DNA of 64,000 nucleotides from Azospirillaceae bacterium. GTDB taxonomy: Bacteria > Pseudomonadota > Alphaproteobacteria > Azospirillales > Azospirillaceae. This document shows, piece after piece, positions 353 through 20,092 of this stretch (positions are counted from its first letter, which is position 1; every line of letters starts with the position of its first letter). A program made the translations under genes and the position numbers. The DNA lies in contig JANQHG010000096.1 in the NCBI GenBank assembly GCA_028277115.1, forward strand, positions 1 to 64,000, read 5' to 3'. Under the pieces are notes generated by a model. It made no database searches. It had not been told where the DNA came from and was given only the letters and a program-made list of their open reading frames with translations.

Positions 353-424
353 CGCCTGTAGCTCAGCGGTAGAGCATCGGACGGCAACGCCGAAGGTCGC
401 AGGTTCGATACCTGTCGGGCGCTT
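353..424 (+). tRNA. tRNA-Cys(GCA)-like, atypical
   Basis: Manual cloverleaf. Acceptor GCGCCUG/CGGGCGC (7 bp, one GU). D-arm GCUC-AGCGGUA-GAGC. Anticodon arm UCGGA-CGGCAAC-GCCGA gives anticodon GCA with A37, but G33 replaces the usual U33 and there is an A31-G39 mismatch. T-arm GCAGG-UUCGAUA-CCUGU. Confidence 0.55.
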
Positions 425-497
425 TTGGGATAGCTCAGCTGGTAGAGCATCGGACTTGTAATCCGAGTGTCGCGGGTTCGACGCCCGCTCCTGTCCA
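425..497 (+). tRNA. tRNA-Thr(UGU)-like, possibly degenerate, directly abutting the upstream tRNA
   Basis: D-arm GCUCAGCUGGUAGAGC. Anticodon arm UCGGA-CUUGUAA-UCCGA (anticodon UGU, U33, A37). T-arm GCGGG-UUCGACG-CCCGC. Only the inner 5 of 7 acceptor pairs form (5' UUUGGGA vs 3' UCCUGUC). There is zero spacer to the previous tRNA. Confidence 0.5.
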
Positions 498-4383: not shown

Positions 4384-4977
4384 TGCCTTCAACCTCCGAT
4401 TATTTGGGCCCCGTGGCCTTTCGAGATTCCGTCCTCTGACCTCGACGGTCGCGAAAGCGCCACCGAGAGCACCGGAGAACCTGCACCGGTAAATACGCCG
4501 AGGCCGCCGGACGCCGAAAGGACGAAATCGCGATCCGGCAACCAATCCGACCCTCTGTGGCCGTGTCGCAACAAAGCGGTCGGCGGGCGCCCCCCGGCAA
4601 ACACCCGCCTGGGCGCCGCAACCTTGAGGCATTCCGCCGCCTTGACCGCCGAAACGACCGCCGTTGCCACCACGACAAAACTGCATCAGTCCGGGAGGCC
4701 TATCGTTGCGCAAAAACCACGGGACCCGTGGGCCGAGACGACGACGACCCAGAAAATTCATGATTTTTCAAATAGTTATTAAGTTGCGCAACCCCGTGCT
4801 GTGCCCGGCCCACCCGAGGCACCGCCGGCGCGGGCGCGCGCCCCGCCGGCCGTGCCCGAACGCGGGTGCGGGCGCGGGCGACAATCGCGCGACGATAATG
4901 GTAAAGTGTCGTTCGATCCGGGCCCGGGCGCCCGAGATCCCCGCTGCCCGAACGACCACTTGCGTGAAGGTCCGCTC

Positions 4978-6090
4978 ATGAGCGTTCGCCCCTATCGCGA
5001 CATCCACCGCCGCCCGTGCCGTCAGATTTTCGTCGGCCGGGTCCCGGTCGGCGGCGACGCGCCGATCTCGGTGCAATCGATGACCAACACGCTCACCACC
5101 GACGTCGCCGGCACGGTCGAGCAGATCCGCCGGATGGAAGACGCGGGCGCCGACATCGTCCGGGTGTCGTGCCCGGACCAGCCGTCGACCGCCGCCCTGA
5201 AGGAGATCGTCCGCGCGGTCGGGGTGCCGATCGTCGCCGACATCCATTTCCACTACAAACGCGCGATCGAAGCCGCCGAGGCCGGAGCGGCGTGTCTGCG
5301 GATCAACCCGGGCAACATCGGCTCCGACGACCGGGTGCGCGAGGTGGTCAAGGCGGCCAAGGACCATGGCTGCTCGATGCGGATCGGGGTCAATGCCGGG
5401 TCGCTCGAAAATGACCTGCTCGAGAAGTACGGCGAACCGTGCCCCGAGGCGATGGTCGAGTCGGCGCTCGATCACGCCCGCCTGCTCCAGGACAACGACT
5501 TCCACGAGTTCAAGATCAGCGTGAAGGCGTCCGACGTCTTCCTCGCGGTCACCGCCTACAAACAACTGGCCGAGGCCTGCGACTATCCCCTGCATATCGG
5601 GATCACCGAGGCCGGGGGTTTGCGCATCGGCACGGTCAAATCGTCGATCGGGCTCGGCATGCTGATGTGGTCCGGGATCGGCGACACCATCCGGGTGTCC
5701 CTGTCCACCGACCCGGTCGAAGAGGTCCGGGTCGCCTACGACATGCTGAAGGTTTTGGGCCTGCGCCGGCGCGGCGTCACCGTGATCTCGTGCCCGTCGT
5801 GCGCGCGCCAGCAGTTCGACGTGATCGAGACCGTGCGGGTGCTCGAGGAACGGCTCGCCCACATCAGCACGCCCTTGACCGTCTCGGTGATCGGCTGCGT
5901 GGTCAACGGCCCGGGTGAGGCGCGCGAGACCGACATCGGCTTCACCGGCGGCGGCAACCACACCCATCAGGTCTATATCGCGGGCCTGCCCCACCATCGC
6001 CTCAAAGACCAGGACATCGTGGACCATCTGGTCCGTTTGGTCGAACAGAAGGCGGCGGAGATCGAGGAGTCCAAGCCCGCGGCGGCATGA
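4978..6090 (+). CDS. ispG: 4-hydroxy-3-methylbut-2-en-1-yl diphosphate synthase (flavodoxin)
   Basis: Full-length match in character to GcpE/IspG ([24 protein letters not shown]..., C-terminal CPSCARQ 4Fe-4S cysteines). ATG at 4978 (MSVRPY), internal to a longer junk-prefixed ORF. Confidence 0.95.
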
Positions 6091-6148
6091 GGCCGGGATC
6101 GGGGCGCCCGTCCCGACCCGCCCGAACGACGGCCCGTGGCATCACCGA

Positions 6149-6176
6149 GATCGGGGCGCGCGACCGCGCCCCGATC
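6149..6176 (+). terminator. perfect 12-bp stem hairpin (GATCGGGGCGCG-cgac-CGCGCCCCGATC) between ispG and hemA
   Basis: Inverted repeat read directly. No U-tract follows, so it is either a non-canonical terminator or a regulatory hairpin. Confidence 0.35.
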
Positions 6177-6204
6177 GCTCGCCGAAACGCAATGAACGGT
6201 TTCG

Positions 6205-7620
6205 ATGTATGTGATCGTCGGCGCGAACCATCGGTCGTGTGACGGCCGGTTGCGCGATCTTCTCTTCACCGAAGAAATCGAGGTGCCGGTGGTCCTGTCG
6301 CGCCTGCGCGCGGCCGGGTTGGCGGAGGGGTTGTGGCTGTCGACCTGCGACCGAGTCGAGGTGCATCTGGTCCACCCCGACCCGGACGACGCGGTTCGCC
6401 GCGCGATCGAGCTGTTTGCCGCGCGCGCCGGGCTCGAGCCGCCGGCACTGTCGGGCCAAGTCTACAGCCTGGTCGGCGACGCCGCGTGCCGGCATGTCTT
6501 TGCGGTCGCAAGCTCGCTCGACAGCCAAGTGGTCGGCGAACCCCACGTGCTGGGCCAGATCAAAGAGGCGTATCGCGCCGCCAACGCCGCCGGCATGCTC
6601 GGCCAGGAGCTGATCCCGACCCTGCAGGCGGCGTTCGCGACCGCAAAACGGGTGCGCACCGAGACCGCGATCGCCGAACGACCGACCTCGATCGCCGCCG
6701 CCGCGGTCCAGTTGGCGCGCAACGTCCACGGCGACATCGACCGCTGCCGCGGCCTTCTGATCGGCGGCGGCGACATGGGTCTGTTGATGATCGACACCCT
6801 GCGTGCGGCCGGGCTCGGTCGGCTGACCGTGGTGTCGACGCTCGACCGACGGGCCCAGGCGCTGGCACGCCGGCTCGACGGCCATTTCCTGCCGGTCGCC
6901 GAGATCGACACCGCGCTTGCCGGCGCCGACATCGTGGTCTCGGCGGTCGGCTCGGGCCGGCTGTTGTTGACCCCGCCGATGATCCAGCAGGCTTTGCGGG
7001 CGCGCCGCCGCCGGCCGATGTTCCTGATCGACGCGGCGCTGCCGACCGACGTCGCGCCCGAGGTCGGCGCGCTCGACGGCGCATTCGTCTATGATCTGAA
7101 CGATCTCGAGCGGGTCGCGATGAGCGGCCGCGACAGCCGCGAGGCCGCCGCGGTCGCGGCCTGGGCGATCGTCGACCAGGCGGTCGGCGCGTTCCTCGAA
7201 GGCCGGGCGAGCCGCGCCGCGGTGCCGACCGTGATCGCGTTGCGCAGCCATTTCGAATCGGTGCGCACCGCCCTGATGGACCAGCGCCCGGGCCTGAGCG
7301 CCGACGAGGCGACCCGGCTCCTGATCAACCGTTTGCTCCATCGTCCCTCGGCGATGCTGCGCCAGTTTGCGGCGGCGCCCGACCGCGGCACCGGCGGCGC
7401 GGCGGCGGATGCCGACCGGTTGGTGCGCCGGTTGTTCGGTCTGCCGGCGGCCGACGGCTCCGCGCCGGAGCCGGAGGGCGGCGCCGAGTCGGTGGGGGCG
7501 GAGCCCGGCGCCGCGGTCGCCCGCGCCGAGACCCCCTGTGCCGCGGCGCCGGTTGCCGTGGTCGCGGCGTCCGATCAGACGCCGGAACCGGCGGCGGTGG
7601 CGGGCCACGCGACCCGATGA
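6205..7620 (+). CDS. hemA: glutamyl-tRNA reductase
   Basis: HemA signatures (GANHRS..., [13 protein letters not shown]). Classic hemA-prfA-prmC order. Has a C-terminal Ala/Pro-rich extension. Confidence 0.9.
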
Positions 7621-8696
7621 GCGACGGCCTGGGCGAGAAGCTGGACCGGCTGGTGGCGCGCCGGGACGAACTGCGTGACCTGTTGAGCGCGGGCGACGGC
7701 GATGCCGGCGCGTTCGCGCGCTTGTCAAAGGAGTATGCCGAGCTGACCCCGGTCGCCGAGGCGATCGACCGGCTGCGCGGGGTCCGTGCCGAGGTCGCGG
7801 AGCTCGAGGCGATGCTGGCCGACCCGGAGACCGACCACGACATGGCGGCGCTGGCCGACGCCGAGCGCACGAGCCTGACCGATCGGATCGCCGCGCTGGA
7901 ACGCGAGGTCCAGCTGTTGCTGCTGCCCAAGGACGAGGCCGACGACAAAAACGCGATCCTCGAGGTCCGCGCCGGCACCGGCGGCGAAGAGGCGGCCTTG
8001 TTCGCCGCCGCCTTGTTCGAGATGTACCGCCGCTACGCCGCGGTGCGCGGCTGGCGGTTCGAGCCGATGGAGATCAGCGAGACCGGGCTCGGCGGCTTCA
8101 AGGAGGCGACCGCGGCGATCACCGGCCGTTCGGTGTTCGCCCGGCTCAAGTTCGAATCCGGGGTCCATCGGGTTCAACGGGTGCCGCAGACCGAGGCCGG
8201 CGGACGCATCCACACCTCGGCCGCGACCGTCGCGGTGCTGCCCGAGGCCGAAGAGGTCGATGTCCAGATCGACGAAAAAGACTTGCGGATCGACGTGTTC
8301 CGCGCCAGCGGCCCCGGCGGCCAATCGGTCAATACCACCGACAGCGCGGTCCGGATCACCCATCTGCCGACCGGTCTGGTGGTCTGTCAACAAGACGAAA
8401 AGTCCCAACACAAGAACAAGGCAAAGGCCCTACGAATATTAAGGGCACGGCTTTACGACCGCGAACGGATCAGCGCGCATGCCGAACGCGCGGCGGCCCG
8501 CAAGACCCAGGTCGGCAGCGGCGATCGGTCGGAGCGGATTCGCACCTATAACTTCCCGCAAGGCCGGGTGACCGATCACCGGATCAACCTGACACTGTAC
8601 AAGATCGACAAAGTGATGCTGGGCGAAGCGCTGGACGAGCTGGTCGACGCGCTGACCGCCGAGGACGAGGCCGCCCGCCTCGCCGAGGTCGGGTGA
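7617..8696 (+). CDS. prfA: peptide chain release factor 1
   Basis: GGQ motif ([25 protein letters not shown]). ATGA overlap with the hemA stop. Followed by prmC. Confidence 0.95.
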
Positions 8697-9625
8697 CGCC
8701 GCACCCGCCGGGCGACACGACCGGGCCGGTCACACTTGGGGCGCTGGTCGCCGAGGGCGTGCACGCGTTGGCCGCAGCCGGGGTCTCAGCACCGCGCCGG
8801 GACGCCCGGCTGTTGATCGCCGTGGCGCTCGGGCTGCCTGAAAGCACGCTGTTTGCCGACCCGACCCGCGCGGTCGCCGGGCCGCCGGTTGCGGCGGCAC
8901 AGGCCCTGATCGCGCGCCGGGCGGCGCGCGAACCGGTGTCGCGCATCCTGGGCCGGCGCGAGTTCTGGAGCCTCGAGTTTCACTTGGGTCCGGCGACGCT
9001 CGACCCCCGCCGGGACAGCGAGACCGTGGTCGACGCGGCGCTTGCCGCGACCGCAGGCCAAGCGGTGGGCCGGGTGCTCGACCTCGGCACCGGCACCGGG
9101 TGTTTGTTGCTGGCAGTGTTGTCGGAGCGGCCCGGTTACCACGGCGTCGGGGTCGATCTGAGCGCCGAGGCGGCCGCGATGGCGCGGCACAACGCCGCGC
9201 GCCTCGGTTTGACGGCGCGCACCCACTTCGTGGCCGGCGATTGGACCGGGCCGATCGATGCGACCTTCGACATTGTGCTGTGCAATCCACCCTATATCGC
9301 CGAGCCCGAGCTCGACCACCTGGAACCCGAGGTTGCAGCCTTCGACCCCCGGCGCGCGCTTGCTGGCGGCCCGGATGGGCTGTCGGCGTATCGCCGACTA
9401 TCGTCTGAGTTGCATCGGGTGCTGGGGCGCACTGGGGTCGCGCTGTTTGAAATCGGCGACGGCCAAGCCGCGGCGGTCGGGAGGATTTTTCAGGATGCCG
9501 GGTTCGCGGTCGGACCGATCGCAGCGGATTTGGCCGGCCGAGCGCGATGTGTCGCGGTGCGAAACTGCGCCGCAAGCACGGGAAGCGGGAAAAAATGGGT
9601 TGGATTGTCACCGGTTCCTGATTAG
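8693..9625 (+). CDS. prmC: release-factor glutamine N5-methyltransferase PrmC/HemK
   Basis: NPPY motif ([11 protein letters not shown]). SAM-binding [15 protein letters not shown] overlap with the prfA stop. Confidence 0.9.
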
Positions 9626-9835
9626 GGTCGCAAGCGTTGCTCCATCGGCGCCCGGCCGGCCGACCGCCGCCCGCGCTGCCGAAGGGGACCCGCCCCGAAC
9701 ACGGCTGCCGCGGTGGCAAGGGATCACCGCGGTCATGATCCGCGGTCGCCTGTTGGCCCGTGCATTGGGCAGACGTGGCCGGTCGGGTGTGCGGTGCTGA
9801 CGAACTCGGGAACTCCAGCCTAGAGTCGAAGCCGT

Positions 9836-10273
9836 ATGAGACAAGGACCCAATACCAGGCGTTCACGCGGCCGCGGTGGAAACAATGGTGGTCGCCGGCA
9901 GAACATCCCGTTACGGCATCAGACCTTCGACAGCAATGGACCAGATGTCCGCATTCGCGGCAACGCGTTCCAGGTCCACGAGAAATACCTGGCGTTGGCA
10001 CGTGATGCTCAGTCTTCGGGAGACCGAATTGCTGCTGAGAATTACTTCCAACATGCCGAACATTATTTTCGTATTATCAATCAGTTCAACGATATGAACG
10101 GCGACGGCAGTCGCCCGCGTACGGGGCGGTACGACACCAACGGCAACGGCAGCAGCCATCCCCAGGGCAATGGGCACGGCAACGGCCACGGCGGCAACGG
10201 CTTCGGCGGCGATCCGGACGATCACGACGACGATGACGGCATCCCGGAGCCGCGGGTTCAACTGAACGCCTGA
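9836..10273 (+). CDS. DUF4167 domain protein with His/Gly/Asn/Asp-rich C-terminal tail
   Basis: Conserved alphaproteobacterial DUF4167 core (HQTFDSNGPDVRIRGNAFQVHEKYLALARDA...AENYFQHAEHYFRII). Tail is GNGHGNGHGGNGFGGDPDDHDDDDG. Confidence 0.8.
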   Translation: MRQGPNTRRSRGRGGNNGGRRQNIPLRHQTFDSNGPDVRIRGNAFQVHEKYLALARDAQSSGDRIAAENYFQHAEHYFRIINQFNDMNGDGSRPRTGRYDTNGNGSSHPQGNGHGNGHGGNGFGGDPDDHDDDDGIPEPRVQLNA

Positions 10274-10308
10274 TCCGCTGGATCGGTCGGAAAGGGCGGT
10301 TGGGGGTG

Positions 10309-12303
10309 TCACCCCCCACATGACGAAGACGGCGCCGGCGTCACCGTCACCGGATCGCCCCGGGAGATCCGCCCGCCGACCGCGACCCGGGCAAAGACGC
10401 CGAACAGGCAATGATCGAACCCCTGCTGCAACGCCTTCGGGATGTTGAGGTCGCGGGCGCCGGTGACGGGATCGACTGCGGTCGCCGCACAACGTTCGAT
10501 CGGGTCGACCACGACAAGGCGAACCGCGCCGATCGCAAGCGTCGCCCCGACCCATCGGGTCTCCTGCCACGCCGGCAGATTGCTTAGATAAACATTACCG
10601 CGGAAACGCAATGGGTGGACAGGTGCCTTGGTCACCCGCTCTAGGTCGCCGACGCTCGCGAGGTTGATCACCGAGACCAGCTTGTCCGGGCTGTCAGAGA
10701 ACATGACCCCCGGCGCTTCGACGATCTTGGGCACGCCAGGAACATCGCGCGCAAGATAGGCGGCCAGGAACTGCTCAATGACGGCTCGTCCGGTGACCGT
10801 GGTCAAGGACCCGCGCGCGACCGGCCGGCCGTTGCGGCGAATCACCAGGGTCTGGGTGTCGGCGTCATAGCCGGTGTCGAGCGCGGCCAGGCGCTCGGTG
10901 CGTGCGACCACGACGAAGTTGCGCCGTGGCAACCAGCGCGGCGCGAGCGGGTCGAACTCGGACCCGCCGTGGGTGATCGCGAAGCGCCGATCCTCGGGCA
11001 TGCCCTGGTCGGCCGCGAGCGCCACCGTGTCCAGCGGATCGGCGCTCAAGCCTTTGACCGGGTAGCGGTAGAGTTGATCGATGGTCGGCGTCATCGGGTC
11101 AGCTTTGTGCAGCGCCGATGGGCTGTCAATCGCCGCGATCGCGCCCCCGCCGACCGCCGGCTCTCGAATGCGGTCCAACGTCTCGATCAAGCACGCGCTG
11201 ACATAGCCTTGCTGGTCTTCGGTCAGGCCGGGGAAGAACGGCAGGGAGATCGTACCGTCACCCCAATCCCGGCTGACCGGATGGTCGTCGGGCGTGAAGC
11301 CGTAGCGGGTGCGGTAATAGGTCAAGGTCGGCACCGAGCGGTAACTGACGGTGCAGCCGATCCCGGCTTGACCGAGCGCGGCCAGCACGCGGTCGCGCCG
11401 GTGGCCGCCGACATCGACCGCAAACAGGTGCCAGGCGCTGGTGCAGCCCGGCGGCATGGCCGGCAGGCGGAGGTCGGCGCGGGCGGCCAAGGCGTCGCGG
11501 TAGCGCGCGGCCAGCGCCTGGCGCATCGGCAGTCGGTCGCGGATCGTCTCGATCTGCCGGGGCAAAAGGGCGGCGAGCAGGTCCGGCAGGTTGGCCTTGG
11601 TACCGAGCACGGTCATGTCCCAGTGGCGGTAGCGGGCGCCGGCATGGCGATCGGCCGCGCCCGCCGACATGCCATGCAGGCGGGTCATGGCGAGGCGCGC
11701 CGCAAGCTCGGGGTTGTGGGTGACGATCGCCCCGCCCTCGCCGCAGGTGACGTTCTTGGTCGCGTAAAAGGAAAAGATCGCAGCGTCGGAGACCCGGCCC
11801 GGCGGGTGGCCGTCGCGGGTCGCCTCGAACGCGTGGGCGGCGTCCTCGATCACGGCGACCCGGCGCGGCGCGTCCTCGAGGCAGCGAACCAAGGCCGCGA
11901 CGTCGCACAAACGGCCGTACAGATGGACCGGGATCACCGCGGCGGTGCGCGCCGTGACCTTGGGTCGGAGCGTCTGCGGGGTCATCAAAAGGGTGTCGGG
12001 GTCGACGTCGGCGAACACCGGCCGCGCCCCGACCAGTTCGGCGGCATTGGCGGTGGCGATGAAAGTCATGGCCGGGACGATCACCTCGTCGCCCGGTCCG
12101 ACCCCGAGCGCGAGCAGGGTCGCGACCGCGCCGTTGGTCCAGCTGTTGGTCAAGAGCGCGTGGGGCGCATCGAAGAAGGCGGCCAGCTGCGCCTCGACCT
12201 GTCTTGTGAGCGCGCCCGTGGTCAGAAACGGGGTGTCGAGCACGCCGGCGACCGCCGCGGCGTCGGCCGCCGACAAGCCATGGCGGTAGAACGGCACCTG
12301 CAT
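10309..12303 (-). CDS. DegT/DnrJ/EryC1/StrS-family PLP-dependent sugar aminotransferase fused in-frame to a complete MOSC-domain (YcbX-like) protein
   Basis: Residues 1-~380 are DegT-like (PLP-Lys in SFYATKNVTCGEGG). Residues 404-664 begin with their own Met (MTPTIDQLYRYPVKGLS, MOSC_N beta-barrel) and continue through a MOSC domain. There is no stop codon between the two parts. Confidence 0.75.
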   Translation of the reverse strand: MQVPFYRHGLSAADAAAVAGVLDTPFLTTGALTRQVEAQLAAFFDAPHALLTNSWTNGAVATLLALGVGPGDEVIVPAMTFIATANAAELVGARPVFADVDPDTLLMTPQTLRPKVTARTAAVIPVHLYGRLCDVAALVRCLEDAPRRVAVIEDAAHAFEATRDGHPPGRVSDAAIFSFYATKNVTCGEGGAIVTHNPELAARLAMTRLHGMSAGAADRHAGARYRHWDMTVLGTKANLPDLLAALLPRQIETIRDRLPMRQALAARYRDALAARADLRLPAMPPGCTSAWHLFAVDVGGHRRDRVLAALGQAGIGCTVSYRSVPTLTYYRTRYGFTPDDHPVSRDWGDGTISLPFFPGLTEDQQGYVSACLIETLDRIREPAVGGGAIAAIDSPSALHKADPMTPTIDQLYRYPVKGLSADPLDTVALAADQGMPEDRRFAITHGGSEFDPLAPRWLPRRNFVVVARTERLAALDTGYDADTQTLVIRRNGRPVARGSLTTVTGRAVIEQFLAAYLARDVPGVPKIVEAPGVMFSDSPDKLVSVINLASVGDLERVTKAPVHPLRFRGNVYLSNLPAWQETRWVGATLAIGAVRLVVVDPIERCAATAVDPVTGARDLNIPKALQQGFDHCLFGVFARVAVGGRISRGDPVTVTPAPSSSCGG

Positions 12304-12328
12304 CGGATCGGGTCTCCCGCTCTGGGCG

Positions 12329-13765
12329 TCACGACGGTGGCCGACCGCCGGGACGGTAGGGATCGAACCACGCGTCGTCGTCGGTATACCCGTACTGCTT
12401 CAAAAGCGAGAACAGCTGCGGGCAGGCGGTGAACTGGTCGCGGATGCGGGCCGCGTGTTTCGGCTCACGCCAGGCGTCGCGCCGGGACGGGTCGAGCGCG
12501 CGGACCCCGTTCAGGGCGAGCGCGAGCGGCGGCGGCGCGTCGGCCGCCGCGAAGTTGGCAAACCAGTCCCGGTAGCGCAGACCGAACGTCCGGGCGAGCC
12601 GCTCCTGGAGCGCCTCCGGTGCCTTGAGCAGGTCTTCGTAGCGCACCACCATCACCCGCACCCGGTCCGACTTGGCCTGGAGCGTGCGCGCGATCGCGGT
12701 GTGGATCGCGATCACCCCGGGGTTGACGTAGCGGGGCGAACCCTCGGGCGGCACGAAGTATTGATGGTCGTAGCCGATGAAGTAATCGTCGGGGACACTG
12801 CGGTGGATCGAGGTCACGACCGCGCGCAGATCGCGGATCATGATCACGACCTTGAGGTCGAGGTCGGCCGGGGCGTCGGCGATCAGCTCCGGCATCTCGA
12901 AGACGTCGAGCGGGCGTTTGGTCGCGAGATGCGGCGGGCCCTCGGCCAGCGACGGCCGCACCGGCGCCTCGTCGTCGAGGGTGGCGACGTCGAGCAGGCT
13001 TCGGCGCAGCATCTGATAGACGAGCGTGGTGCCGCTGCGCGGATAGCCGGTGACGACCAGGCGCGATCGTCGGTCCGGCGGCGGTCCGGGCAGGCGCGCG
13101 GCGTGGTCGATCCGAAACGCGAGCGTGGTGCGCTCGACCGCCGGTCGCCACATCGCGCCGGTCGCGCTGCGCGGCCCGACCGAATGGCGGCCGCGCCGGT
13201 TCAAAAAGAACGGGCGCTTGATCTTGATGCAGCGATGGTCGAGCCAGACCGACAGATAGTACTTGAAATCCTCGCCGCAGTCCATCTCGGGGTCGAACTT
13301 GATCTGGCGGGCGACCTCGGTGCGCACGAAATGGCCCATCTGCAAGGTCAGATAGGGGTCGTGGGCCAGGAGGTCGCCGAGGCTGGAGAGGGTCGTTGCC
13401 TGGCCCGCACGCAAACGCGGGGCGCCATTCACGCCCATTTCGAAAATCAGGCCCCAGACCGCGTCGTAGGCGCGGTGGAGCCCGGTCATGAAGGAGAACG
13501 CCTGTTCGACCATCAGGTCGTCGGCGTCGAGGAAGAACAGCCAGTCGAAGCCGCGCTCGGCGGCGATCTCGATGCCGGTGTTGCGCCGGTTCGACCGGCC
13601 GTGCCGCGCTTTTGTGTCGTCGAGCGTCAGGACGTCGATGGTCGCGAACGGTCCCGGGTCGGCGGCCGCGGCGGCGGCGACCGATCGGCGCGCCTCCTCG
13701 GCCAAGGTTTGGTGGCCCGGGCCGACCGGGGTGATCACGCAGCAGGACGGGTTCGGGTGCGGCAC
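12329..13765 (-). CDS. glycosyltransferase family 2 domain fused to a PAPS-dependent sulfotransferase domain
   Basis: N-terminal GT2-like region (CCVITPVGPGH...FLDADDLM). C-terminal sulfotransferase 5'-PSB motif (VVTGYPRSGTTLVYQMLRRS) and 3'-PB-like RDLRAVVTS. Start placed at a GTG with RBS GGAGACG; the longer ORF to 14065 has an Arg-rich junk prefix. Confidence 0.7.
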   Translation of the reverse strand: MPHPNPSCCVITPVGPGHQTLAEEARRSVAAAAAADPGPFATIDVLTLDDTKARHGRSNRRNTGIEIAAERGFDWLFFLDADDLMVEQAFSFMTGLHRAYDAVWGLIFEMGVNGAPRLRAGQATTLSSLGDLLAHDPYLTLQMGHFVRTEVARQIKFDPEMDCGEDFKYYLSVWLDHRCIKIKRPFFLNRRGRHSVGPRSATGAMWRPAVERTTLAFRIDHAARLPGPPPDRRSRLVVTGYPRSGTTLVYQMLRRSLLDVATLDDEAPVRPSLAEGPPHLATKRPLDVFEMPELIADAPADLDLKVVIMIRDLRAVVTSIHRSVPDDYFIGYDHQYFVPPEGSPRYVNPGVIAIHTAIARTLQAKSDRVRVMVVRYEDLLKAPEALQERLARTFGLRYRDWFANFAAADAPPPLALALNGVRALDPSRRDAWREPKHAARIRDQFTACPQLFSLLKQYGYTDDDAWFDPYRPGGRPPS

Positions 13766-13859
13766 CGGGCGTCTCCGGGTCGGCGGGCGGCGGCGCGGTG
13801 CCGGCCGCCGGTGCCGCCGCGCCGAACCCGACCGCAGGTGGGGACCGCCGCCCCGGGCT

Positions 13860-14666
13860 TCAGTGGGCGGGGCCGTGGAACACGGCGTCGAGGTCGTCGG
13901 CCTTGAGCGCGGCTGCCATCCATCGAGCGATTTGCTGAACCGAGGCAGCCTGGATCCGCATGCGAATCGGCTCGGGCACCGGCGCCCCGAAGCGTTCCTC
14001 CAAGACATAGAGCAAAGGCGCCGCGCGACCTTTGTCGTACACGGTGCGAAGGAACTCGTTCTCATTGATATCGATTTCGAGGCCCATGGCGGCTGCCTCC
14101 TCTTCTACCACCGCGGCTGCTCTCTTGATCCCGGCCAGGATCATCAACCGGGCCACCGCGTCGCTGCGCTCGTTCTCGTCCAATATGGTAAGCCGGTTCA
14201 AGATGTCGCGCACCCGCGCGCGCATGTCGTCGGTGCGGCACAGAATAGCGAGCACATGGTCGTCGGGCCTGGGGCTGGCGAGCAAGCGGTCGGGGTCCAG
14301 GCTCTCGAAGCTGACCACGGCGAAACGGAAGCTCAGGTTGGGGTGCTCGATGGTGCGCGGCATCGCCGCGGCGACGGCGTCGGTCAGCGCCAGCACGATC
14401 TGGACGATCGGCGCGCCGCCCTTTGCCTCGGCAATCGGGCCGTAATACTCGAGCATCCGCCAGTCCATCCGCAGGTCCGGATCCCCCTGGAGCTCCAGGT
14501 GCAAGACGCGCCGATCGGCCAGATCGGCGATGAAGTCGGGCACGCGTTTGCGGGTCGAAGAGAACTCGGTCGGGGTGATCGTGACTGCGGTGGTCCCGAC
14601 CAACTGGTTGAGCAGCCCCGGCGCGCCGCGCCAGAGCAGGTCCTTCAAGGTGGTGTCATAGATCAT
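13860..14666 (-). CDS. Rpn/YhgA-like PD-(D/E)XK nuclease family putative transposase with DUF4351-like C-terminus
   Basis: MIYDTTLKDLLWRGAPGLLNQL...VLHLELQGDPDLRMDWRMLEYY matches the Rpn-family N-terminal nuclease pattern. C-terminal ...LLYVLEERFGAPVPEPIRMRIQAASVQQIARWMAAAL...LDAVF matches DUF4351. ATG at 14666; the long 478-aa ORF prefix is junk. Confidence 0.7.
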   Translation of the reverse strand: MIYDTTLKDLLWRGAPGLLNQLVGTTAVTITPTEFSSTRKRVPDFIADLADRRVLHLELQGDPDLRMDWRMLEYYGPIAEAKGGAPIVQIVLALTDAVAAAMPRTIEHPNLSFRFAVVSFESLDPDRLLASPRPDDHVLAILCRTDDMRARVRDILNRLTILDENERSDAVARLMILAGIKRAAAVVEEEAAAMGLEIDINENEFLRTVYDKGRAAPLLYVLEERFGAPVPEPIRMRIQAASVQQIARWMAAALKADDLDAVFHGPAH

Positions 14667-14704
14667 CGGGCACGGGTCTCCGGCGGGGCGGCTCGATCGG
14701 GCGG

Positions 14705-15724
14705 TCACAGAACCTTGCCGTCCAAGACCACGTCGCGCAGGGTTTCGTTGGCGTCGATCAGGAAGCGGTACCACTCGACGGTCCTGGTCTTGGGGCCTTC
14801 TTCGACCGTGCCGTCGAAGATCGCCTGGTAGACCTGTCTGATCCCGGCCTCGACGCTGATCGCCGGCTCGAACCCGACCGTTTGGCGCATGCGCTCGGTC
14901 GCGACCGCGTAGCTGCGTTTGTCTGCGTCGTCGGGGGCGATCACGATATCGACCGGGAAGTTGAGCGTCTGGCGGACCAGCATCGCGACCGCCCGGGCGT
15001 TGAGGTTGGCGAGCGCTGCGTTGAAGATGCGGCCGCCGACCCGGTCGGCCGGGGCCGCCAGCAGGGCGATCATGGCGTCCGCGACGTCGCCGACGTGGAT
15101 CAGGGGCCGGACCTGGCGGCCGCCGCCCAGGACGGTGATCCGCCCCTGGGTTGCCGCGGTCAGGACCATCAGGTTGACGATCAGGTCGAACCGCATGCGC
15201 GGCGACACCCCGAACACGGTGCCGTTGCGCTGGGCGACCGCGGTGAAGCCGTCGCCGTCGAGCGCGAGGATCGCCTGTTCCGCCAGGATGTTGCATTTGG
15301 CGTAGGTGCTGACCGGGTTGGTCGGCGCGTCCTCATCGACCGGCTGGCGGCCGCTGCGTCCGTAGGCCGAGCAGGAGCTCGACAGGACGTAGCGCGCGAC
15401 CCCGGCCGACTTGGCCATTTCGGCCAGGCGACGGCGGGCTTCAAAGTTGATCTTGAGGGTCAGCTCCGGCGACAGTTCGCCGCTTGGGTCGTTGGACAGG
15501 GCGGCCAGGTCGCAGACGGCGTCGCAGCCGTGCAGGCGCGCGTGTGGGAGTGTGCGGACATCGCCGCGTTCGAGCCGCAGGCCCGGATGGTCGGCGACCG
15601 GGTCGAGCGGCCCGGTCCCGAAGAAGAAGCGGTCGAACGCGATGACGTCGTGATTTTGATCCAGCAGCTTTGGGACCAACACACTCCCGATGTACCCGCC
15701 GGCCCCGGTGACCAAAACCCTCAT
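14705..15724 (-). CDS. NAD-dependent epimerase/dehydratase (extended SDR; likely nucleotide-sugar dehydratase/epimerase)
   Basis: MRVLVTGAGGYIGS Rossmann motif. YAKCN (YxxxK) catalytic motif. 340 aa. Confidence 0.85.
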   Translation of the reverse strand: MRVLVTGAGGYIGSVLVPKLLDQNHDVIAFDRFFFGTGPLDPVADHPGLRLERGDVRTLPHARLHGCDAVCDLAALSNDPSGELSPELTLKINFEARRRLAEMAKSAGVARYVLSSSCSAYGRSGRQPVDEDAPTNPVSTYAKCNILAEQAILALDGDGFTAVAQRNGTVFGVSPRMRFDLIVNLMVLTAATQGRITVLGGGRQVRPLIHVGDVADAMIALLAAPADRVGGRIFNAALANLNARAVAMLVRQTLNFPVDIVIAPDDADKRSYAVATERMRQTVGFEPAISVEAGIRQVYQAIFDGTVEEGPKTRTVEWYRFLIDANETLRDVVLDGKVL

Positions 15725-15732
15725 GGCGTTTT

Positions 15733-15797
15733 CCCCAAGTTGGGGGGTCCAGGGGGCAACCCCTGGTGGGGGGTGTCGGGGGGCGACGCCCCCTGAC
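15733..15797. repeat. GC-rich palindromic intergenic repeat, copy B
   Basis: GGGGTCCAGGGGGCAACCCCTGGTGGGGGGTGTCGGGGGGCGACGCCCCCTGACC. Shares one half with copy A and the other half with copy C. Contains CAGGGG-GCAA-CCCCTG and GGGGGCG-a-CGCCCCC hairpins. Confidence 0.55.
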
Positions 15798-15798
15798 C

Positions 15799-16851
15799 TC
15801 ACGCGGTGAAGCGCGCCCCTCCCCACTTTTGCGCCTCGTCCAGCAGCCACTCTCGTTCGGCCTCGGCCCGTTCGATCAGTAGGGCGAGCTCCGGCCGCGC
15901 CTTCAGGTTTGCTTTGAGCGCGTTGATCTGCCGGTTGCGGGCGGCGATCCGGAAGCTGAGGTCGAGCACTTGCCAGGCCGGCCTTGGTCCTTCGGTGGGT
16001 TTGCGCTTCTGCGCCGGGCGGGCGTGCAGGCAGGTGATCTTGGCCGCATCGACCCCGAACGCCTGTTCCAGTTGGGCGAGGTCTTGGATTGCGTCGCCTT
16101 TGATCACCGCCGCGTTCGAGATGGCGTCGTCGTGGCGGGTATAGAGCCGCATCGGTTGGGCCGAGGTCAGGACCACCGGTTCGAACTCGACCACCTTGTG
16201 GTAGTGCGACCAGAGTTTGTGGCGGGCGCTGAGCGCGGTGATGCCGGACGACAGGCGGGCCATCACGAACACGCTCATGCTGGCGAAGTCTTCGTCGTGC
16301 GGTTCGGTCGCCAGGCTGGCGAGGTCGAACCAGATGCCGTTCCTGAAGGTGATGACGATGCCGGCGGAGTGGGCGACCAGCCAGGGCCTTTGGTCACGGG
16401 CGGTTTCGAAGGCGGCGCGTTTTTGCCGGGCCAGGCGTTGCACGACTTCGGTGGTTTGGCGGCTCCAGGCGTCGTCGTCGTCGATGATCGAGGTCAGGAC
16501 GTAGGCGGTCGGGTCCTCGACCAGCCCGTGGCCCAAGACGGCATCGATCACGAGGCCGTCGAGCCAGGCCTGGGTGCCCTGTTGCATGGTCACGATGGTG
16601 CGGCGATCGACCTCGAGCAGGCGGGCTTGCGGGGAGATCGCCAGCAGGCGCTCGAGCCGGGTCCGCTGCGGGGTCGGCATGTCGGCGTCGATGCCGATCA
16701 GCCAGTAAAAGCGCCCGTCGGCCTGGCGGCTGATCGAGGGGTGGGTGATCGCTTCGAACAGGTCGAGCTTGCGCTCGAGCCAGGCCGGTTCGGTGACGCC
16801 GATGCCGAACCGGGTCAGGATGATGTGGGGGACCGGATCGTTCTGGCTCAC
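15799..16851 (-). CDS. putative glycosyltransferase (Rhamno_transf / putative rhamnosyltransferase-like family)
   Basis: Protein-like C-terminal 351 aa of a 1023-aa ORF (VSQNDPVPHIILTRFGIGVTEPAWLERKLDLFEAITHPSISRQADGRFYWLIGID...). GTG start overlaps the TGA stop of the upstream formyltransferase (GTGA coupling). Confidence 0.55.
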   Translation of the reverse strand: MSQNDPVPHIILTRFGIGVTEPAWLERKLDLFEAITHPSISRQADGRFYWLIGIDADMPTPQRTRLERLLAISPQARLLEVDRRTIVTMQQGTQAWLDGLVIDAVLGHGLVEDPTAYVLTSIIDDDDAWSRQTTEVVQRLARQKRAAFETARDQRPWLVAHSAGIVITFRNGIWFDLASLATEPHDEDFASMSVFVMARLSSGITALSARHKLWSHYHKVVEFEPVVLTSAQPMRLYTRHDDAISNAAVIKGDAIQDLAQLEQAFGVDAAKITCLHARPAQKRKPTEGPRPAWQVLDLSFRIAARNRQINALKANLKARPELALLIERAEAEREWLLDEAQKWGGARFTA

Positions 16852-17717
16852 GTCAAGCGCCCCCGAAGCCCGGTGGGATGGAACGGGCTGCCGTCGGCGG
16901 TGGTCGCCCGGTCGATCCGAAGCAGGCCGGTGCCGCAGACGACGACGGCGGCGCCGTGGTCGAGCCGCCAGATTTTGCCGGGCTGGCGGAGTTCGAACGC
17001 GAGGTCGGGCAGCGGCGTGGCGGCGTGCACGATGATCTCCTGGTCGCGATAGCGGGTCAAGGCGCCGTGGTAGGGCGGCCCGACGGCGTCGACGAAGCGG
17101 GCGATCGCGGCGGCATGCGCGTGCCAGTCGATCCAGCCGTCGTCGCGGTCGCGCCAGATCGCGTAGGTCGCGGCCGCATCGTCCTGGGGCGTCTCGGTGA
17201 GGTCGGGCCAGGCGGCGGCGAGTTCGCGCGCAAGGTCGGCGGCTTCGCGCGCTTGGCGGTGCAGGGCCTCGGCGATGGTGATCGGGTAGGAAATTTCGAA
17301 GCCGCGCTGCCCGAGCAGGGGTCCTGCGTCGACCGCGGCGGCCGGGCGCAGCGCGCTGACCCCGATCCGGGGTTCGCCCTTGATCAGCGCGGTCACGGTC
17401 GGCGCGAAGCCGCGGTAGCGGGGCAGCAGCGCGTCGTGGATCACGATCACCGAGGGCGCCGGCGCATCGACCAGGTACTGCCAGCCGACCAGGAACAAGA
17501 GATCGAACGCGGCCATGGTGTCGCGGCCGAGCCGGTGTTCGACGGCGAGCGGGATGCCGCGGGCGGCGCACAGATCGCGGATGCGGGCGAAATCGCCGGC
17601 GGCGGCGTCGTCGTCGTCTTGGCGATAGGACACGACGCCGGCAATGCGTGCGGTCTCGACCAGGCGTTCCAGGAACACCCGGCCTTTCAGTCCGACCCCG
17701 GCGACGCCTAAGCGCAT
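16848..17717 (-). CDS. formyltransferase (Fmt-N fold; likely sugar N-formyltransferase)
   Basis: HxALLPRYRG motif (VIVIHDALLPRYRGFAPTVTALIKGE) of N10-formyl-THF-dependent formyltransferases. 290 aa, no tRNA-binding C-domain. ATG at 17717. Confidence 0.8.
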   Translation of the reverse strand: MRLGVAGVGLKGRVFLERLVETARIAGVVSYRQDDDDAAAGDFARIRDLCAARGIPLAVEHRLGRDTMAAFDLLFLVGWQYLVDAPAPSVIVIHDALLPRYRGFAPTVTALIKGEPRIGVSALRPAAAVDAGPLLGQRGFEISYPITIAEALHRQAREAADLARELAAAWPDLTETPQDDAAATYAIWRDRDDGWIDWHAHAAAIARFVDAVGPPYHGALTRYRDQEIIVHAATPLPDLAFELRQPGKIWRLDHGAAVVVCGTGLLRIDRATTADGSPFHPTGLRGRLT

Positions 17718-17898
17718 CGACCACCGATCCTCTCGTGCCCTGCCCCGTCTGGTCGCAACCATACCGGGGATCGGCCCCGGCGCCAACGCGCCGCCCCTTG
17801 CCGCGGCCGGGCGTGGTCGGCGCCCTTGAACCCGCTTGACGCGCCGGCTTGGAACAACATTCTTGAGCCATCTTCCAAAGGGGGCGAGGGGGCGCGGC

Positions 17899-19035
17899 AT
17901 GGTCGGGACGACCGGACGGTTGGCTTATGCGGTTACCCAGACCGCACGGTTGATGTGGTTCACCGGACAATATCTGTTGGCGTTTCGGTTCGCGACGGCG
18001 CGGCGGCGCGCGGCGGAAGCGGCCGCCGCGGCAGCGCCGGCGCCGGCCGGCACGCGTGCCGGCGGCACCGACCGTGCGACCGCACGGTCGCGGCGGCGCC
18101 AGCTGATCGGTGATCTGCACCGGCTGATGGCGCGCGACCTCGACAATATCAAGGCGGGCTATTACGCCCTGCCCTATGACATGTGGGTGCGGCCGGACCG
18201 GCCGATCGCCGATACGGTGCGGTTTCTGCGCGACATGCCGGTGGTCGAGCGGCGGCGGCGCGCCGGTGCGGGCGACGAGGTGCGCCGCCACGCGCCCGCC
18301 GGCTCCGAGGCGCTGCCGGACTATTACCGCCAGAACTTCCACTTCCAGACCGACGGCTACCTCAGCCCCGAGTCGGCCCGGCTCTACGATCACCAGGTCG
18401 AGGTGCTGTTCACCGGCGGCGCCGACGCGATGCGCCGGCAAGCGCTGGTGCCGCTTTACCATTTCCTGCAATCGCGCCGGCAGGGCGCGTGCCGTCTGGT
18501 CGATGTCGCTGCCGGGACCGGCCGGTTCCTGACCTTCGTCAAGGACAACTACCCGCTGCTGCCGGTGACCGCCCTCGACTTGAGCCGCCCCTATCTGGAC
18601 GAGGCGCGGCGGCGTCTGGCACCGTGGGCGCGCACGGTGTCGGTGGTCCGGGGCGCGGCCGAACACCTGCCGTTCGCCGACGCGAGCCAGGACGTGATCA
18701 CCTGCATCTATCTGTTTCACGAGTTGCCGGGCCCGGTCCGGCGCGCGGTCGCGCGCGAATTTGCCCGGGTGCTGGCGCCCGACGGCCGGGTGATCTTCGT
18801 GGACAGCCTGCAGACCGGCGACCGCCCGCCGTTCGACCCGCTGCTCGAACGGTTTCCGCATATGTTCCATGAACCCTATTACCGCGACTACATCGCCGAC
18901 GATCTGGTCGGCCTGTTCGCCGAGGCCGGCCTGGTTCTGAGCGAGACCAGCACCGCGTTTCTGTCCAAGGTGATGGTGCTGACGCGGGACGCGGCGGCGG
19001 CCGGCGCCGTTTCGGACCGCGCGGCGGCGGCGTGA
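17899..19035 (+). CDS. class I SAM-dependent methyltransferase with N-terminal extension
   Basis: Motif I LVDVAAGTGRF and post-I DVITCIYLFHELP. Divergent from the glycan cluster. A TTG at 17836 is an alternative start. Confidence 0.75.
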   Translation: MVGTTGRLAYAVTQTARLMWFTGQYLLAFRFATARRRAAEAAAAAAPAPAGTRAGGTDRATARSRRRQLIGDLHRLMARDLDNIKAGYYALPYDMWVRPDRPIADTVRFLRDMPVVERRRRAGAGDEVRRHAPAGSEALPDYYRQNFHFQTDGYLSPESARLYDHQVEVLFTGGADAMRRQALVPLYHFLQSRRQGACRLVDVAAGTGRFLTFVKDNYPLLPVTALDLSRPYLDEARRRLAPWARTVSVVRGAAEHLPFADASQDVITCIYLFHELPGPVRRAVAREFARVLAPDGRVIFVDSLQTGDRPPFDPLLERFPHMFHEPYYRDYIADDLVGLFAEAGLVLSETSTAFLSKVMVLTRDAAAAGAVSDRAAAA

Positions 19036-19149: not shown

Positions 19150-19533
19150 TCAGGACCTCGCGCCGGCGGCGCCGTCGTCGGGTTTGAGGCCGAGCTCGCG
19201 CAACAACCGGTTGTAGTACCAGATGTTGCCGAGCACCCCGCCGAGCGCGCCGCCGAGCATCACCGCAACCGTGTTCGAGGTGACGAGCGAGGTCAGAATG
19301 CCGCCGACCAGGATGCCGGTCCACAGATGGATCGAATACTCGGTGACCATCCGGTAGACCTCGCCGGCGATGCGGACGTCGAGCTCAAGTGGCGCGACCG
19401 CCCCGGCGTGATGTCCCGGGTCGCTCTCGGCCAGCGCCGGTGTCGCCGCCACCAGCCACCCAACCAAGACTGCCAGAAAGCCCAGTCGTCTGACCACCCC
19501 CGTCTCCCCCGGCTCGGTCCGTCCTCGTCGCAA
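19150..19533 (-). CDS. hypothetical secreted/membrane protein with glycine-zipper TM segment
   Basis: Signal-peptide-like RRLGFLAVLVGWLVAATPALA. GxxxG-rich helix MLGGALGGVLGNIWYYN. An internal GTG (at 19497, RBS GGAGA) is an alternative start. Confidence 0.45.
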   Translation of the reverse strand: MRRGRTEPGETGVVRRLGFLAVLVGWLVAATPALAESDPGHHAGAVAPLELDVRIAGEVYRMVTEYSIHLWTGILVGGILTSLVTSNTVAVMLGGALGGVLGNIWYYNRLLRELGLKPDDGAAGARS

Positions 19534-19612
19534 CTATAAACCCCGCGCCCTGGCGATGGCCAAAGGAAAAGCGGGCGGGCGGGGGTGGCGCGGCCCTCGC
19601 CCGCCCAGCCGG

Positions 19613-20092
19613 TCATCCGCGCGGCGCGATCTGCCAGCGCGCGACCCAGGCGTAGACCACCGCGAACAGGATGTGGCCGACCAGAGCGACCCAGGTGATG
19701 CCGGTGAAGTTGAGGAACGGCGGGTTGCCGGCGACCAGATGGGCCATAATGTAGAGCGCAAAGACCCAGAGCGCGACGCCGTACACCACCGCCGAGACCA
19801 GCCACGGCACCATCGGCAGCGCGCGGCGCACCACCGCGTGCCAGATCATCCACCCGATCGGGTAGGCGACCAAGCCGGCGATGTAGTGGAGCAGATTGCC
19901 ACCCGGGCGATAGGGCTCGCCGAACACGACGCCCCAGGTCTGGGTGGCGAGCGGGACCGGGGCCAGATTGGCAAAGCCGGCGATCGGCGACAGGGCTTGG
20001 CCGAACAGGTCGAACGCGATGGTCGCGGCGGAGCCGGCGATCAACATGGTTGCGATCGCCGACGGGACGTCGGCGGTGTTGTGATTGGACAT
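19613..20092 (-). CDS. hypothetical integral membrane protein (4 predicted TM helices)
   Basis: RBS AGGAGA 7 nt upstream of the ATG. Hydrophobic helical segments throughout. 159 aa. Confidence 0.7.
   Translation of the reverse strand: MSNHNTADVPSAIATMLIAGSAATIAFDLFGQALSPIAGFANLAPVPLATQTWGVVFGEPYRPGGNLLHYIAGLVAYPIGWMIWHAVVRRALPMVPWLVSAVVYGVALWVFALYIMAHLVAGNPPFLNFTGITWVALVGHILFAVVYAWVARWQIAPRG

Follow-up and report, generated by a model that had tools for sequence, protein, structure and literature searches.

We analyzed a cluster of predicted sugar-modification genes in a 64-kb stretch of DNA (64,000 nucleotides, here called the window) from an Azospirillaceae bacterium (contig JANQHG010000096.1 of assembly GCA_028277115.1). 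An earlier note on this DNA, made from the sequence alone, had proposed that the genes between 10309 and 19035 make a formylated and sulfated glycan that contains an amino sugar. We found that the region is a 6.6-kb mosaic island, from ~11.1 to 17.7 kb, that lies beside a MOSC gene in a housekeeping region of Azospirillaceae type and that encodes soluble enzymes only.

Genes at the locus

The G+C content of the window is ~69%, and raw lists of its open reading frames (ORFs) are rich in spurious frames. We chose the coding frame of each segment by analysis of the G+C content at third codon positions (GC3). This gave six contiguous genes on the minus strand, A through F, and one divergent gene on the plus strand, G (lengths in amino acids, aa):

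10309-12303, minus strand: gene A, 664 aa, DegT, MOSC_N and MOSC domains
12329-13765, minus strand: gene B, 478 aa, GTG start, GT-A glycosyltransferase domain and sulfotransferase domain
13860-14666, minus strand: gene C, 268 aa, weakly Rpn-like
14705-15724, minus strand: gene D, 339 aa, extended short-chain dehydrogenase/reductase (SDR)
15799-16851, minus strand: gene E, 350 aa, glycosyltransferase of family PF11316 ('Rhamno_transf')
16848-17717, minus strand: gene F, 289 aa, formyltransferase fold with N- and C-terminal domains
17836-19035, plus strand: gene G, 399 aa, start codon uncertain, class I S-adenosylmethionine-dependent methyltransferase

The predicted products of all six minus-strand genes had exact matches, with the same boundaries, in a public protein collection, where they derive from an NCBI contig of 65,623 bp. 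Together with the Pfam matches, the motifs HDALLPRYRG (in F), YPRSGTTL and IRDLRAVVTS (both in B), and a GTGA overlap between F and E, these matches show that the gene inventory of the earlier note was real. The note omitted C, which lies between the SDR gene and the gene for the glycosyltransferase-sulfotransferase, and the MOSC module of A. The intergenic gaps in the cluster are 25-94 bp. All of the ORFs are intact, and their GC3 (0.82-0.90) is similar to that of neighboring genes. Proteins A through F have no convincing transmembrane segment; there are only two borderline 19-residue windows, one in the MOSC part of A and one in C. A scan for promoters and terminators gave no signal above background. 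Comparison of the region to plasmids (Megablast) gave only a 600-bp match of 74%, which is uninformative.

F is a predicted sugar N-formyltransferase and is coupled to a glycosyltransferase

F has two formyltransferase domains, PF00551 (Formyl_trans_N) and PF02911 (Formyl_trans_C; 1.1e-12). The second is the tRNA-type domain that the earlier note had reported as missing. Among solved structures, F scored 73.7 bits with the formyltransferase domain of ArnA (ArnA-FT) and 66 bits with the methionyl-tRNA formyltransferase Fmt. A profile of the F family gave 119.5 bits with Fmt, 114.9 bits with ArnA-FT, and no more than 55 bits with WbkC, WlaRD, FdtF and VioF. That is, of the enzymes with which the earlier note had suggested comparing F (WbkC, VioF, FdtF and the N-terminal part of ArnA), ArnA is near and the other three are not. 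Scores with the NCBIfam models were 78.9 bits for fmt (TIGR00460; cut-off 201.5) and 85.5 bits for ArnA (cut-off 777).

The family of F consists of proteins of ~290 aa in at least 344 representative clusters (E < 1e-30). Its consensus is VVxHDSLLPRYRGFAPT, and residues H94, D95 and D130 are invariant (alignment A1, 42 members). We counted the neighbors of family members at 30 metagenomic loci that had at least 1.5 kb on either side. A DegT gene was within 3 kb at 26 of the 30 loci, a gene for an ArnC-like glycosyltransferase of family GT2 at 28, and both at 25. The genes were in the orders GT2-F-DegT and DegT-GT2-F, similar to arnB-arnC-arnA, and the ArnC-like GT2s of these loci have two C-terminal transmembrane helices. 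Because of the DegT neighbors at 26 of the 30 loci, we consider F to be an enzyme of a sugar pathway and not a housekeeping Fmt. Sequence does not separate F from Fmt, but gene context does, and we infer that F is an N-formyltransferase of nucleoside diphosphate (NDP)-4-amino sugars. F had no match in plasmids.

E matches PF11316 (4.9e-18; 65.9 bits, cut-off 23), a family whose name, 'rhamnosyl transferase', rests on one enzyme from Sphingomonas (PMC9145935). The GTG start codon of E overlaps the TGA stop codon of F as GTGA, and the two genes are translationally coupled. The F-E pair was also present in three further assemblies. A motif, I-D-x-D-D-x-W (I123, D124, D126, D127 and W129; IDDDDAW in E), was invariant in the three sequences compared. 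A word-indexed search for relatives of E gave only one distant match, which is in a capsule locus of the KpsC/S type. A further search gave only weak matches, to unannotated Paracoccus sequences.

A and D resemble a conserved aminotransferase-SDR pair

A is made of two parts that are joined by a short linker:

11164..12303, minus strand: N-terminal part of A, predicted ArnB-like pyridoxal phosphate-dependent sugar 4-aminotransferase (DegT family), ~380 aa (PF01041, 1.7e-92)
11095..11163, minus strand: linker of ~22 codons from the DegT ORF to the MOSC ORF, in frame and with no stop codon; junction between island and backbone
10309..11094, minus strand: C-terminal part of A, MOSC_N and MOSC module (PF03473, 2.8e-13; PF03476, 1.8e-6)

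The best solved relative of the DegT domain is ArnB (233.9 bits, 3.3e-68). The next family had an E value of 1e-46, and the others scored no more than 163 bits. The lysine motif SFYATK is present in the translation of A. A was below every equivalog cut-off in NCBIfam: it had 257.8 bits with the ArnB model (cut-off 631) and a similar score with PseC. There are many stand-alone DegT homologues of ~380 aa that are 55-67% identical to the DegT part of A.

D matches PF01370 (NAD-dependent epimerase/dehydratase; 6e-41). Its best solved relative is 6vo6 (1e-31), which we take to be Cj1427, ahead of GalE-like epimerases and UXS (9e-18). The ArnA model matched D only at the Rossmann N-terminus (E 0.0012). 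D has S-C-S at the positions that are T-D-E in 4,6-dehydratases and T-S-E in UXS and ArnA, and there is no other SDR dehydratase in or adjoining the cluster. The earlier note had offered precursors of the perosamine or Qui4N (4-amino-4,6-dideoxyglucose) type as candidates. The S-C-S of D, the absence of a 4,6-dehydratase, and the closest solved relatives of A and F (ArnB and ArnA-FT or Fmt) all argue against such precursors.

The sequence features of D are family-wide. In its clade, which includes the homologues at loci L007-L032, Y-A-[KRE]-x-[NST] is mostly found in place of YxxxK, together with S-C-S. A homologue of D (43-54% identity) was directly downstream of the DegT gene at 15 of 20 related genome loci that had downstream sequence, and at 6 of these 15 the next gene encoded an ArnC-like GT2. 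At one locus (L087) the order was DegT-SDR-GT2-small ORF-GNAT. D, an atypical extended SDR, is the conserved partner of this clade of aminotransferases, and we expect from these comparisons that it would be the enzyme that makes the NDP-4-keto sugar.

B is a rare fusion of a glycosyltransferase and a sulfotransferase

B also has two domains:

13091..13765, minus strand: N-terminal GT-A (GT2-like) glycosyltransferase domain, ~225 aa (AlphaFold2 model, Foldseek, DADD motif)
12329..13078, minus strand: C-terminal sulfotransferase domain of the type that uses 3'-phosphoadenosine 5'-phosphosulfate (PAPS) (PF13469 and PF00685, motifs)

The C-terminal domain matches PF13469 (1.4e-9; 38.9 bits, cut-off 27) and PF00685 (2e-5; 24.6 bits, cut-off 22). 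It contains the two motifs YPRSGTTL and IRDLRAVVTS. An alignment of the full-length homologues shows conservation of the corresponding 5'-phosphosulfate-binding motif (5'-PSB; G-[YF]-[PS]-R-S-G-[TS]-T) and 3'-phosphate-binding motif (3'-PB; R-D-x-R-x-x-x-[TV]-S). By the Pfam matches and both motifs, this domain is classified as a PAPS-type sulfotransferase.

The earlier note had described B as a GT2 fused to a sulfotransferase. In B itself, the match to PF00535 is below the Pfam threshold (17.7 vs 23.3 bits, E 0.0036). The homologues of B do match PF00535, and a confident model upholds the fusion. The AlphaFold2 model, made with 57 homologues, had a pLDDT (predicted local distance difference test) of 91.4 and a pTM (predicted template modeling score) of 0.89. 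A Foldseek search of the PDB with this model found the GT2 enzymes WrtF, TarS, TarP and RmlT (~1e-7, probability 1.00). The top 50 matches were to GT-A proteins only, so the sulfotransferase assignment rests on Pfam and the motifs. The DADD motif of the N-terminal domain is conserved, with D80, D82 and D83 invariant in the 57 homologues.

The N-terminal domain of B is common, and its usual fusion partner is FkbM or another methyltransferase, as in Azospirillum, Pseudomonas and others. A sulfotransferase in place of the methyltransferase was found in only ~7 clusters. As judged from these protein families, the GT2-sulfotransferase is a rare architecture, a domain swap of the widespread GT2-FkbM methyltransferase family.

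The genomic settings of these proteins vary. In Pseudomonas, the gene for the GT2-FkbM protein is between fliC and flgL, beside a gene for a tetratricopeptide repeat (TPR) protein. The Azospirillum GT2-FkbM homologue is at a non-flagellar location. In two metagenome-assembled genomes (MAGs), a GT2-sulfotransferase gene is followed by a gene for an orthologous TPR protein, and these loci are dominated by genes of polysaccharide type (Poly_export, GT4 glycosyltransferases, PS_pyruv_trans and acyltransferases). We also noted that three of the loci compared (L001, L004 and L005) have a two-gene module that encodes a TPR protein of ~540-550 aa and a fusion of a GT2 and a modifying domain. The C-terminal domain of this TPR protein (~400 aa) is 36% identical between Pseudomonas and the MAGs and has no Pfam match beyond the TPR repeats.

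The island is a mosaic

Only part of the gene set is conserved. A contig of 3.9 kb (L094) has contiguous homologues of the DegT gene (64% identity), F (59%), the PF11316 glycosyltransferase gene (44%) and the SDR gene (68%). Its F homologue is the closest to F (60%), and the 4-nt overlap between the F and glycosyltransferase genes is the same as in the window. This contig was the only other instance, in the data searched, of the F-E pair and of the set of DegT, formyltransferase, PF11316 glycosyltransferase and SDR genes. The earlier note had looked to co-conservation of the cluster in relatives. The whole set was not co-conserved: only these four genes recur, and only on L094. Among the loci compared, the GT2-sulfotransferase, the Rpn-like gene and the MOSC fusion were specific to the window. 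The region is a mosaic made of a four-gene core, a rare glycosyltransferase-sulfotransferase, a passenger of Rpn-like type and a backbone gene that became fused by accident.

The fusion of DegT to MOSC in A is at the left edge of the island. To the left of the island are ispG, hemA (encoding GluTR), prfA, prmC and a DUF4167 gene. The order ispG-hemA-prfA-prmC-DUF4167-MOSC (4801-11094 in the window) is also found in plasmid p1 of Azospirillum brasilense Sp7 (L175); the products are 79% (prfA), 81% (ispG) and 86% (DUF4167) identical. The shared order indicates that the MOSC gene belongs to the backbone and that the left edge of the island is the 5' end of the MOSC gene. It also puts the source organism within the Azospirillaceae or close to them. 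Azospirillum has stand-alone MOSC proteins that share 47% identity with the MOSC part of A, and these proteins begin at a Met equivalent to position 11094 of the window. None of 80 related DegT loci had a MOSC neighbor, and none of the top 120 DegT homologues was a DegT-MOSC fusion. A is a read-through of the DegT ORF into the conserved backbone gene, and MOSC is probably a passenger with no part in the sugar pathway. Of the two unusual fusions in the earlier note, the GT2-sulfotransferase is thus genuine and rare, and DegT-MOSC is a read-through.

We considered the possibility that the DegT-MOSC fusion is an artefact of a 1-nt insertion or deletion. An extra G in the run of five Gs near 11150 would end the DegT ORF at a TGA 20 nt before the ATG of MOSC. 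We rejected this possibility. Three Logan assemblies, each made independently from a single run (SRR20820733, SRR20820739 and SRR20820740), had exactly the same junction (window positions 11080-11180), and the fusion is therefore real DNA. In two of the three assemblies, an ORF of >594 aa was called across the junction. Two Logan contigs from different runs (L179 and L180) both stop at position 12094 of the window, within the DegT gene. This shared end may reflect variation between strains at this point, or a repeated sequence in the population.

C is probably not a glycan enzyme. It had no match in Pfam or NCBIfam, and permissive Pfam searches of C and of small neighboring ORFs also gave nothing useful. 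Searches with tblastn found weak similarity to annotated cyanobacterial proteins of the Rpn family of nucleases and putative transposases (25-27% identity over 91% of the length, E 1e-5 to 4e-4). A model of C from the single sequence was unusable (pLDDT 44). From these similarities, C is probably a passenger, weakly related to the Rpn family (PD-(D/E)XK nuclease/putative transposase), and may be a selfish element that marks a recent rearrangement.

G, the divergent methyltransferase gene, was counted as a member of the cluster in the earlier note. G matches PF13649 (1.7e-18), and its NCBIfam matches were all far below the cut-offs (weakly RquA/UbiE-like). The ORF from 17836 had no exact match in the protein collection. 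Homologues of G are present in replicons of Indioceanicola and Microvirga, and none of the other window genes tested was within the 19-kb Indioceanicola locus (L176). We considered G as a member of the pathway and found no supporting evidence in the contexts of its homologues, nor any other link to the pathway.

A proposed pathway

The core of the earlier proposal, a formylated amino sugar and sulfation, is upheld in part. Genes for an aminotransferase, a protein with a formyltransferase fold, an SDR, two glycosyltransferases of GT-A type and a PAPS-type sulfotransferase are packed on one strand. The unity of the cluster is not upheld. We propose that the island makes a formylated 4-amino sugar, attaches it to an acceptor that is made elsewhere, and sulfates the product, as a reshuffled relative of the Arn pathway. 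We give this proposal about an even chance of being correct. The domain identities, the gene order and coupling, the fusion and the co-occurrence counts are direct results; the substrates, the order of the steps and the acceptor are predictions and would be as follows.

In the first step, D would oxidize C4 of a nucleotide sugar to give the 4-keto form. Because D has neither the residues of 4,6-dehydratases nor those of the UXS/ArnA decarboxylases, we think that this would be a plain oxidation, of the type carried out by Cj1427. Cj1427 is a C4 dehydrogenase: it forms a 4-keto sugar with no dehydration step, and alpha-ketoglutarate recycles the enzyme (PMC10680097). Recycling of D by alpha-ketoglutarate would suit a transaminase partner that releases alpha-ketoglutarate. 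In the second step, the ArnB-like domain of A would transaminate the keto sugar to give the NDP-4-amino sugar. In the third, F would N-formylate the amino sugar with N10-formyl-tetrahydrofolate, and this would pull the unfavorable transamination forward, as in the Arn pathway.

In the fourth step, E would transfer the formamido sugar to the acceptor. Relatives of both sub-modules have, at the place of E, an ArnC-like GT2 that is anchored in the membrane and would load undecaprenyl phosphate. The soluble PF11316 glycosyltransferase here and on L094 suggests that the final glycan may keep its formyl group. Since E replaces a membrane enzyme of the ArnC type and all of the enzymes are soluble, the acceptor is probably met at the cytoplasmic face. 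In the fifth step, the GT-A domain of B would add a further sugar and the PAPS-dependent domain would sulfate the glycan. The acceptor is probably a polysaccharide or lipopolysaccharide (LPS) intermediate that is built elsewhere, or a protein such as flagellin; it is not encoded locally. It is also conceivable, if quite improbable, that an Arn-type module has been uncoupled from its lipid carrier, such that the soluble PF11316 glycosyltransferase transfers the sugar, still formylated, straight to an acceptor in the cytoplasm, which might be flagellin or some other protein, and B extends and sulfates it. B would then represent an enzyme family in which one polypeptide first adds a sugar and next sulfates it. 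To our knowledge, a sulfated formamido glycan of this type has not been described in bacteria. In the literature we found nothing relevant on sulfated flagellin glycans, on a sugar N-formyltransferase with ArnA, or on 6vo6.

Other features of the window

No Wzx, Wzy or ABC exporter is adjacent to the cluster in the annotated flanks, as the earlier note had stated. To the right of the island are G, two small membrane proteins and then a gene for methylcrotonyl-CoA carboxylase. Other features are:

351-496, plus strand: tRNA-Cys (351-424) and tRNA-Thr (424-496), found with ARAGORN, with a 1-nt overlap
19150-20092, minus strand: the two small predicted membrane proteins between G and the carboxylase gene, 127 aa (sub-threshold weak glycine-zipper match) and 159 aa
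22812-25728, plus strand: two genes with ABC-3C-system domains (CTD10; DUF2326), G+C 0.60-0.65 vs ~0.69
29716-32070, plus strand: 784-aa protein with many TPR repeats and a GT41 (O-GlcNAc-transferase-like) domain, 12 kb from the cluster
57144-60148: fliI (ATPase of the type III secretion system type), a small downstream ORF and a CtrA-like response regulator; fliI is ~40 kb from the cluster

The ABC-3C stretch looks like an acquired module of the defense type. The presence of fliI and of the CtrA-like regulator indicates that the organism is flagellated.

Alternative functions of the island

Several observations weigh against the proposed pathway. By sequence alone, F is equally near to Fmt and to ArnA. 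The catalytic Asn of the N-x-H motif is Val throughout the family of F, which as far as we found is uncharacterized in this Val form, so F might use another donor or another reaction. In D (YAKCN) and in most members of its family the lysine of YxxxK is missing, which is unexpected for a dehydrogenase. No other instance of the full gene set turned up in the data that we searched. The ORFs annotated in the 64-kb window include no gene for an acceptor, an initiating transferase, a flippase, an ArnT- or ArnD-like protein, or PAPS synthesis. The window has no orthologue of the TPR protein that partners B-type enzymes; the 784-aa TPR-GT41 protein shares only generic TPR similarity with it.

It is possible that the region is a protein O-glycosylation island, in which soluble enzymes build a short formamido-sugar glycan on a protein (flagellin) in the cytoplasm and sulfate it. 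The Pseudomonas homologue of the GT-A domain of B (the FkbM fusion) is at the classical site of flagellin glycosylation islands, between fliC and flgL and beside a TPR protein gene. Furthermore, all of the cluster enzymes are soluble, there is no lipid-carrier machinery, and the organism has a flagellar gene (fliI) and a TPR-GT41 protein 12 kb away. In contrast, the flanks of the island are housekeeping genes and not flagellin genes, and the conserved TPR partner is absent from the window. The other GT2-sulfotransferase genes are in loci of polysaccharide type, the relative of E is in a KpsC/S-type capsule locus, and the GT2-FkbM homologue of Azospirillum itself is not flagellar. We consider protein glycosylation unlikely.

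The island might instead carry out an Arn-like modification of the envelope in which formylation is transient. E would then stand in for ArnC and load polyprenyl phosphate with a formylated 4-amino sugar; a deformylase, a flippase and a GT-C glycosyltransferase would come from genes at other sites; and the sugar that finally ends up on, for example, lipid A or LPS core would not be formylated. The closest solved relatives of A and F, ArnB and ArnA-FT, are as expected for such a system. Both sub-modules are normally beside genes for ArnC-like GT2s, often followed by genes for large proteins without Pfam matches that are candidate membrane transferases. However, E has no transmembrane helix and the ArnC-like GT2s have two. 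The annotated ORFs of the window also include no ArnD-, ArnT- or ArnE/F-like gene, the T-S-E signature of UDP-glucuronic acid decarboxylases is missing from D, and the co-located glycosyltransferase-sulfotransferase suggests that the glycan is assembled in the cytoplasm. Transient formylation in an envelope pathway seems to us distinctly unlikely.

A decaying mosaic, with no defined product any more after recent shuffling and loss of catalytic residues, is very unlikely. The unique gene set, the Rpn-like gene inside it and the read-through into a backbone gene would all fit with decay, as would the absence of the Asn in F and of the Lys in D. These substitutions, however, are family-wide and are kept across hundreds of clusters; they are not specific to this lineage. 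In addition, all of the ORFs are intact with GC3 of 0.82-0.90, F and E are still translationally coupled, and assemblies from three sequencing runs have the same or almost the same sequence.

Finally, the earlier note had regarded a bona fide tRNA enzyme as fatal to its proposal, and it is extremely unlikely that F is a second methionyl-tRNA formyltransferase and that the cluster makes a non-formylated amino sugar: F has an Fmt-type C-terminal domain and its family profile scores slightly higher with Fmt than with ArnA, but its 78.9 bits are far from the 201.5-bit fmt cut-off, the Asn of N-x-H is absent from its family, DegT and ArnC-like GT2 genes are both neighbors at 25 of the 30 loci, and F is coupled to a glycosyltransferase.

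Implications

Sulfated bacterial glycans are uncommon and the enzymes that make them are mostly stand-alone. If our proposal is correct, the glycosyltransferase-sulfotransferase would offer a compact means of producing sulfated sugars and would be a marker in genomes for sulfated surface glycans. The comparative data also define three uncharacterized families: ArnA/Fmt-like formyltransferases without the Asn, SDRs without the Lys that are paired with ArnB-like aminotransferases, and a rare soluble glycosyltransferase variant that replaces a lipid-carrier transferase. The results suggest that Arn-like amino-sugar chemistry is much more widespread and more modular than one would gather from the lipid A pathway by itself. 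The practical stakes are modest. The host, an Azospirillaceae-like bacterium, is uncultured.

Comparison with known systems

The sugar N-formyltransferases WlaRD, FdtF, VioF, WbkC and Rv3404c have the same fold as F, and F is proposed to share their N-formylation of an NDP-amino sugar. They are distant in sequence, and most of them have a different C-terminal region where F has PF02911. NodH and LpsS of Sinorhizobium, an alphaproteobacterium, are stand-alone PAPS-type sulfotransferases that have the 5'-PSB and 3'-PB motifs and act on a glycan. B resembles them in these respects, as they are generally described, and differs in that its sulfotransferase is fused to a glycosyltransferase.

The known proteins to compare with B are the GT2-FkbM fusions, annotated as 'FkbM family methyltransferase'. 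They have the same GT-A domain of ~225 aa, with 47-55% identity and the same invariant motifs, and the same modular design of a glycosyltransferase followed by a domain that modifies the glycan. In B a PAPS sulfotransferase stands where these proteins have the methyltransferase. Fusions of a GT2 and a modifying domain have a TPR partner gene at L001, L004 and L005, and the window has none.

For the SDR, Cj1427 of the Campylobacter heptose pathway keeps the YxxxK motif (YGIDK, aligned with D), and D has YAKCN. In the WbpB/WbpE system, a dehydrogenase and a transaminase are reportedly coupled through alpha-ketoglutarate, and the tight pairing of SDR and aminotransferase genes found here would suit such coupling.

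The system that the island most resembles is the Arn pathway (PmrHFIJKLM), which adds 4-amino-4-deoxy-L-arabinose (L-Ara4N) to lipid A. In that pathway formylation drives the equilibrium. The island has an ArnB-like aminotransferase and a two-domain formyltransferase of ~290 aa like ArnA-FT. The relatives of F are in triplets that resemble arnB-arnC-arnA(FT), and formylation after 4-transamination would follow the same logic. In contrast to the Arn pathway, the SDR here is encoded by a separate gene and lacks both the T-S-E of the ArnA dehydrogenase domain and UXS and the lysine of YxxxK. F lacks the Asn of the Asn-His-Asp triad, although His94 and Asp130 are kept. The island has a soluble PF11316 glycosyltransferase for the membrane protein ArnC, and there is no ArnD, ArnT, ArnE or ArnF among the annotated ORFs of the window. 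It also has an added glycosyltransferase-sulfotransferase, and its scores with the ArnB and ArnA models of NCBIfam are far below the equivalog cut-offs. In its workings the island is closest to a rewired Arn pathway, but it is not itself a member of that pathway.

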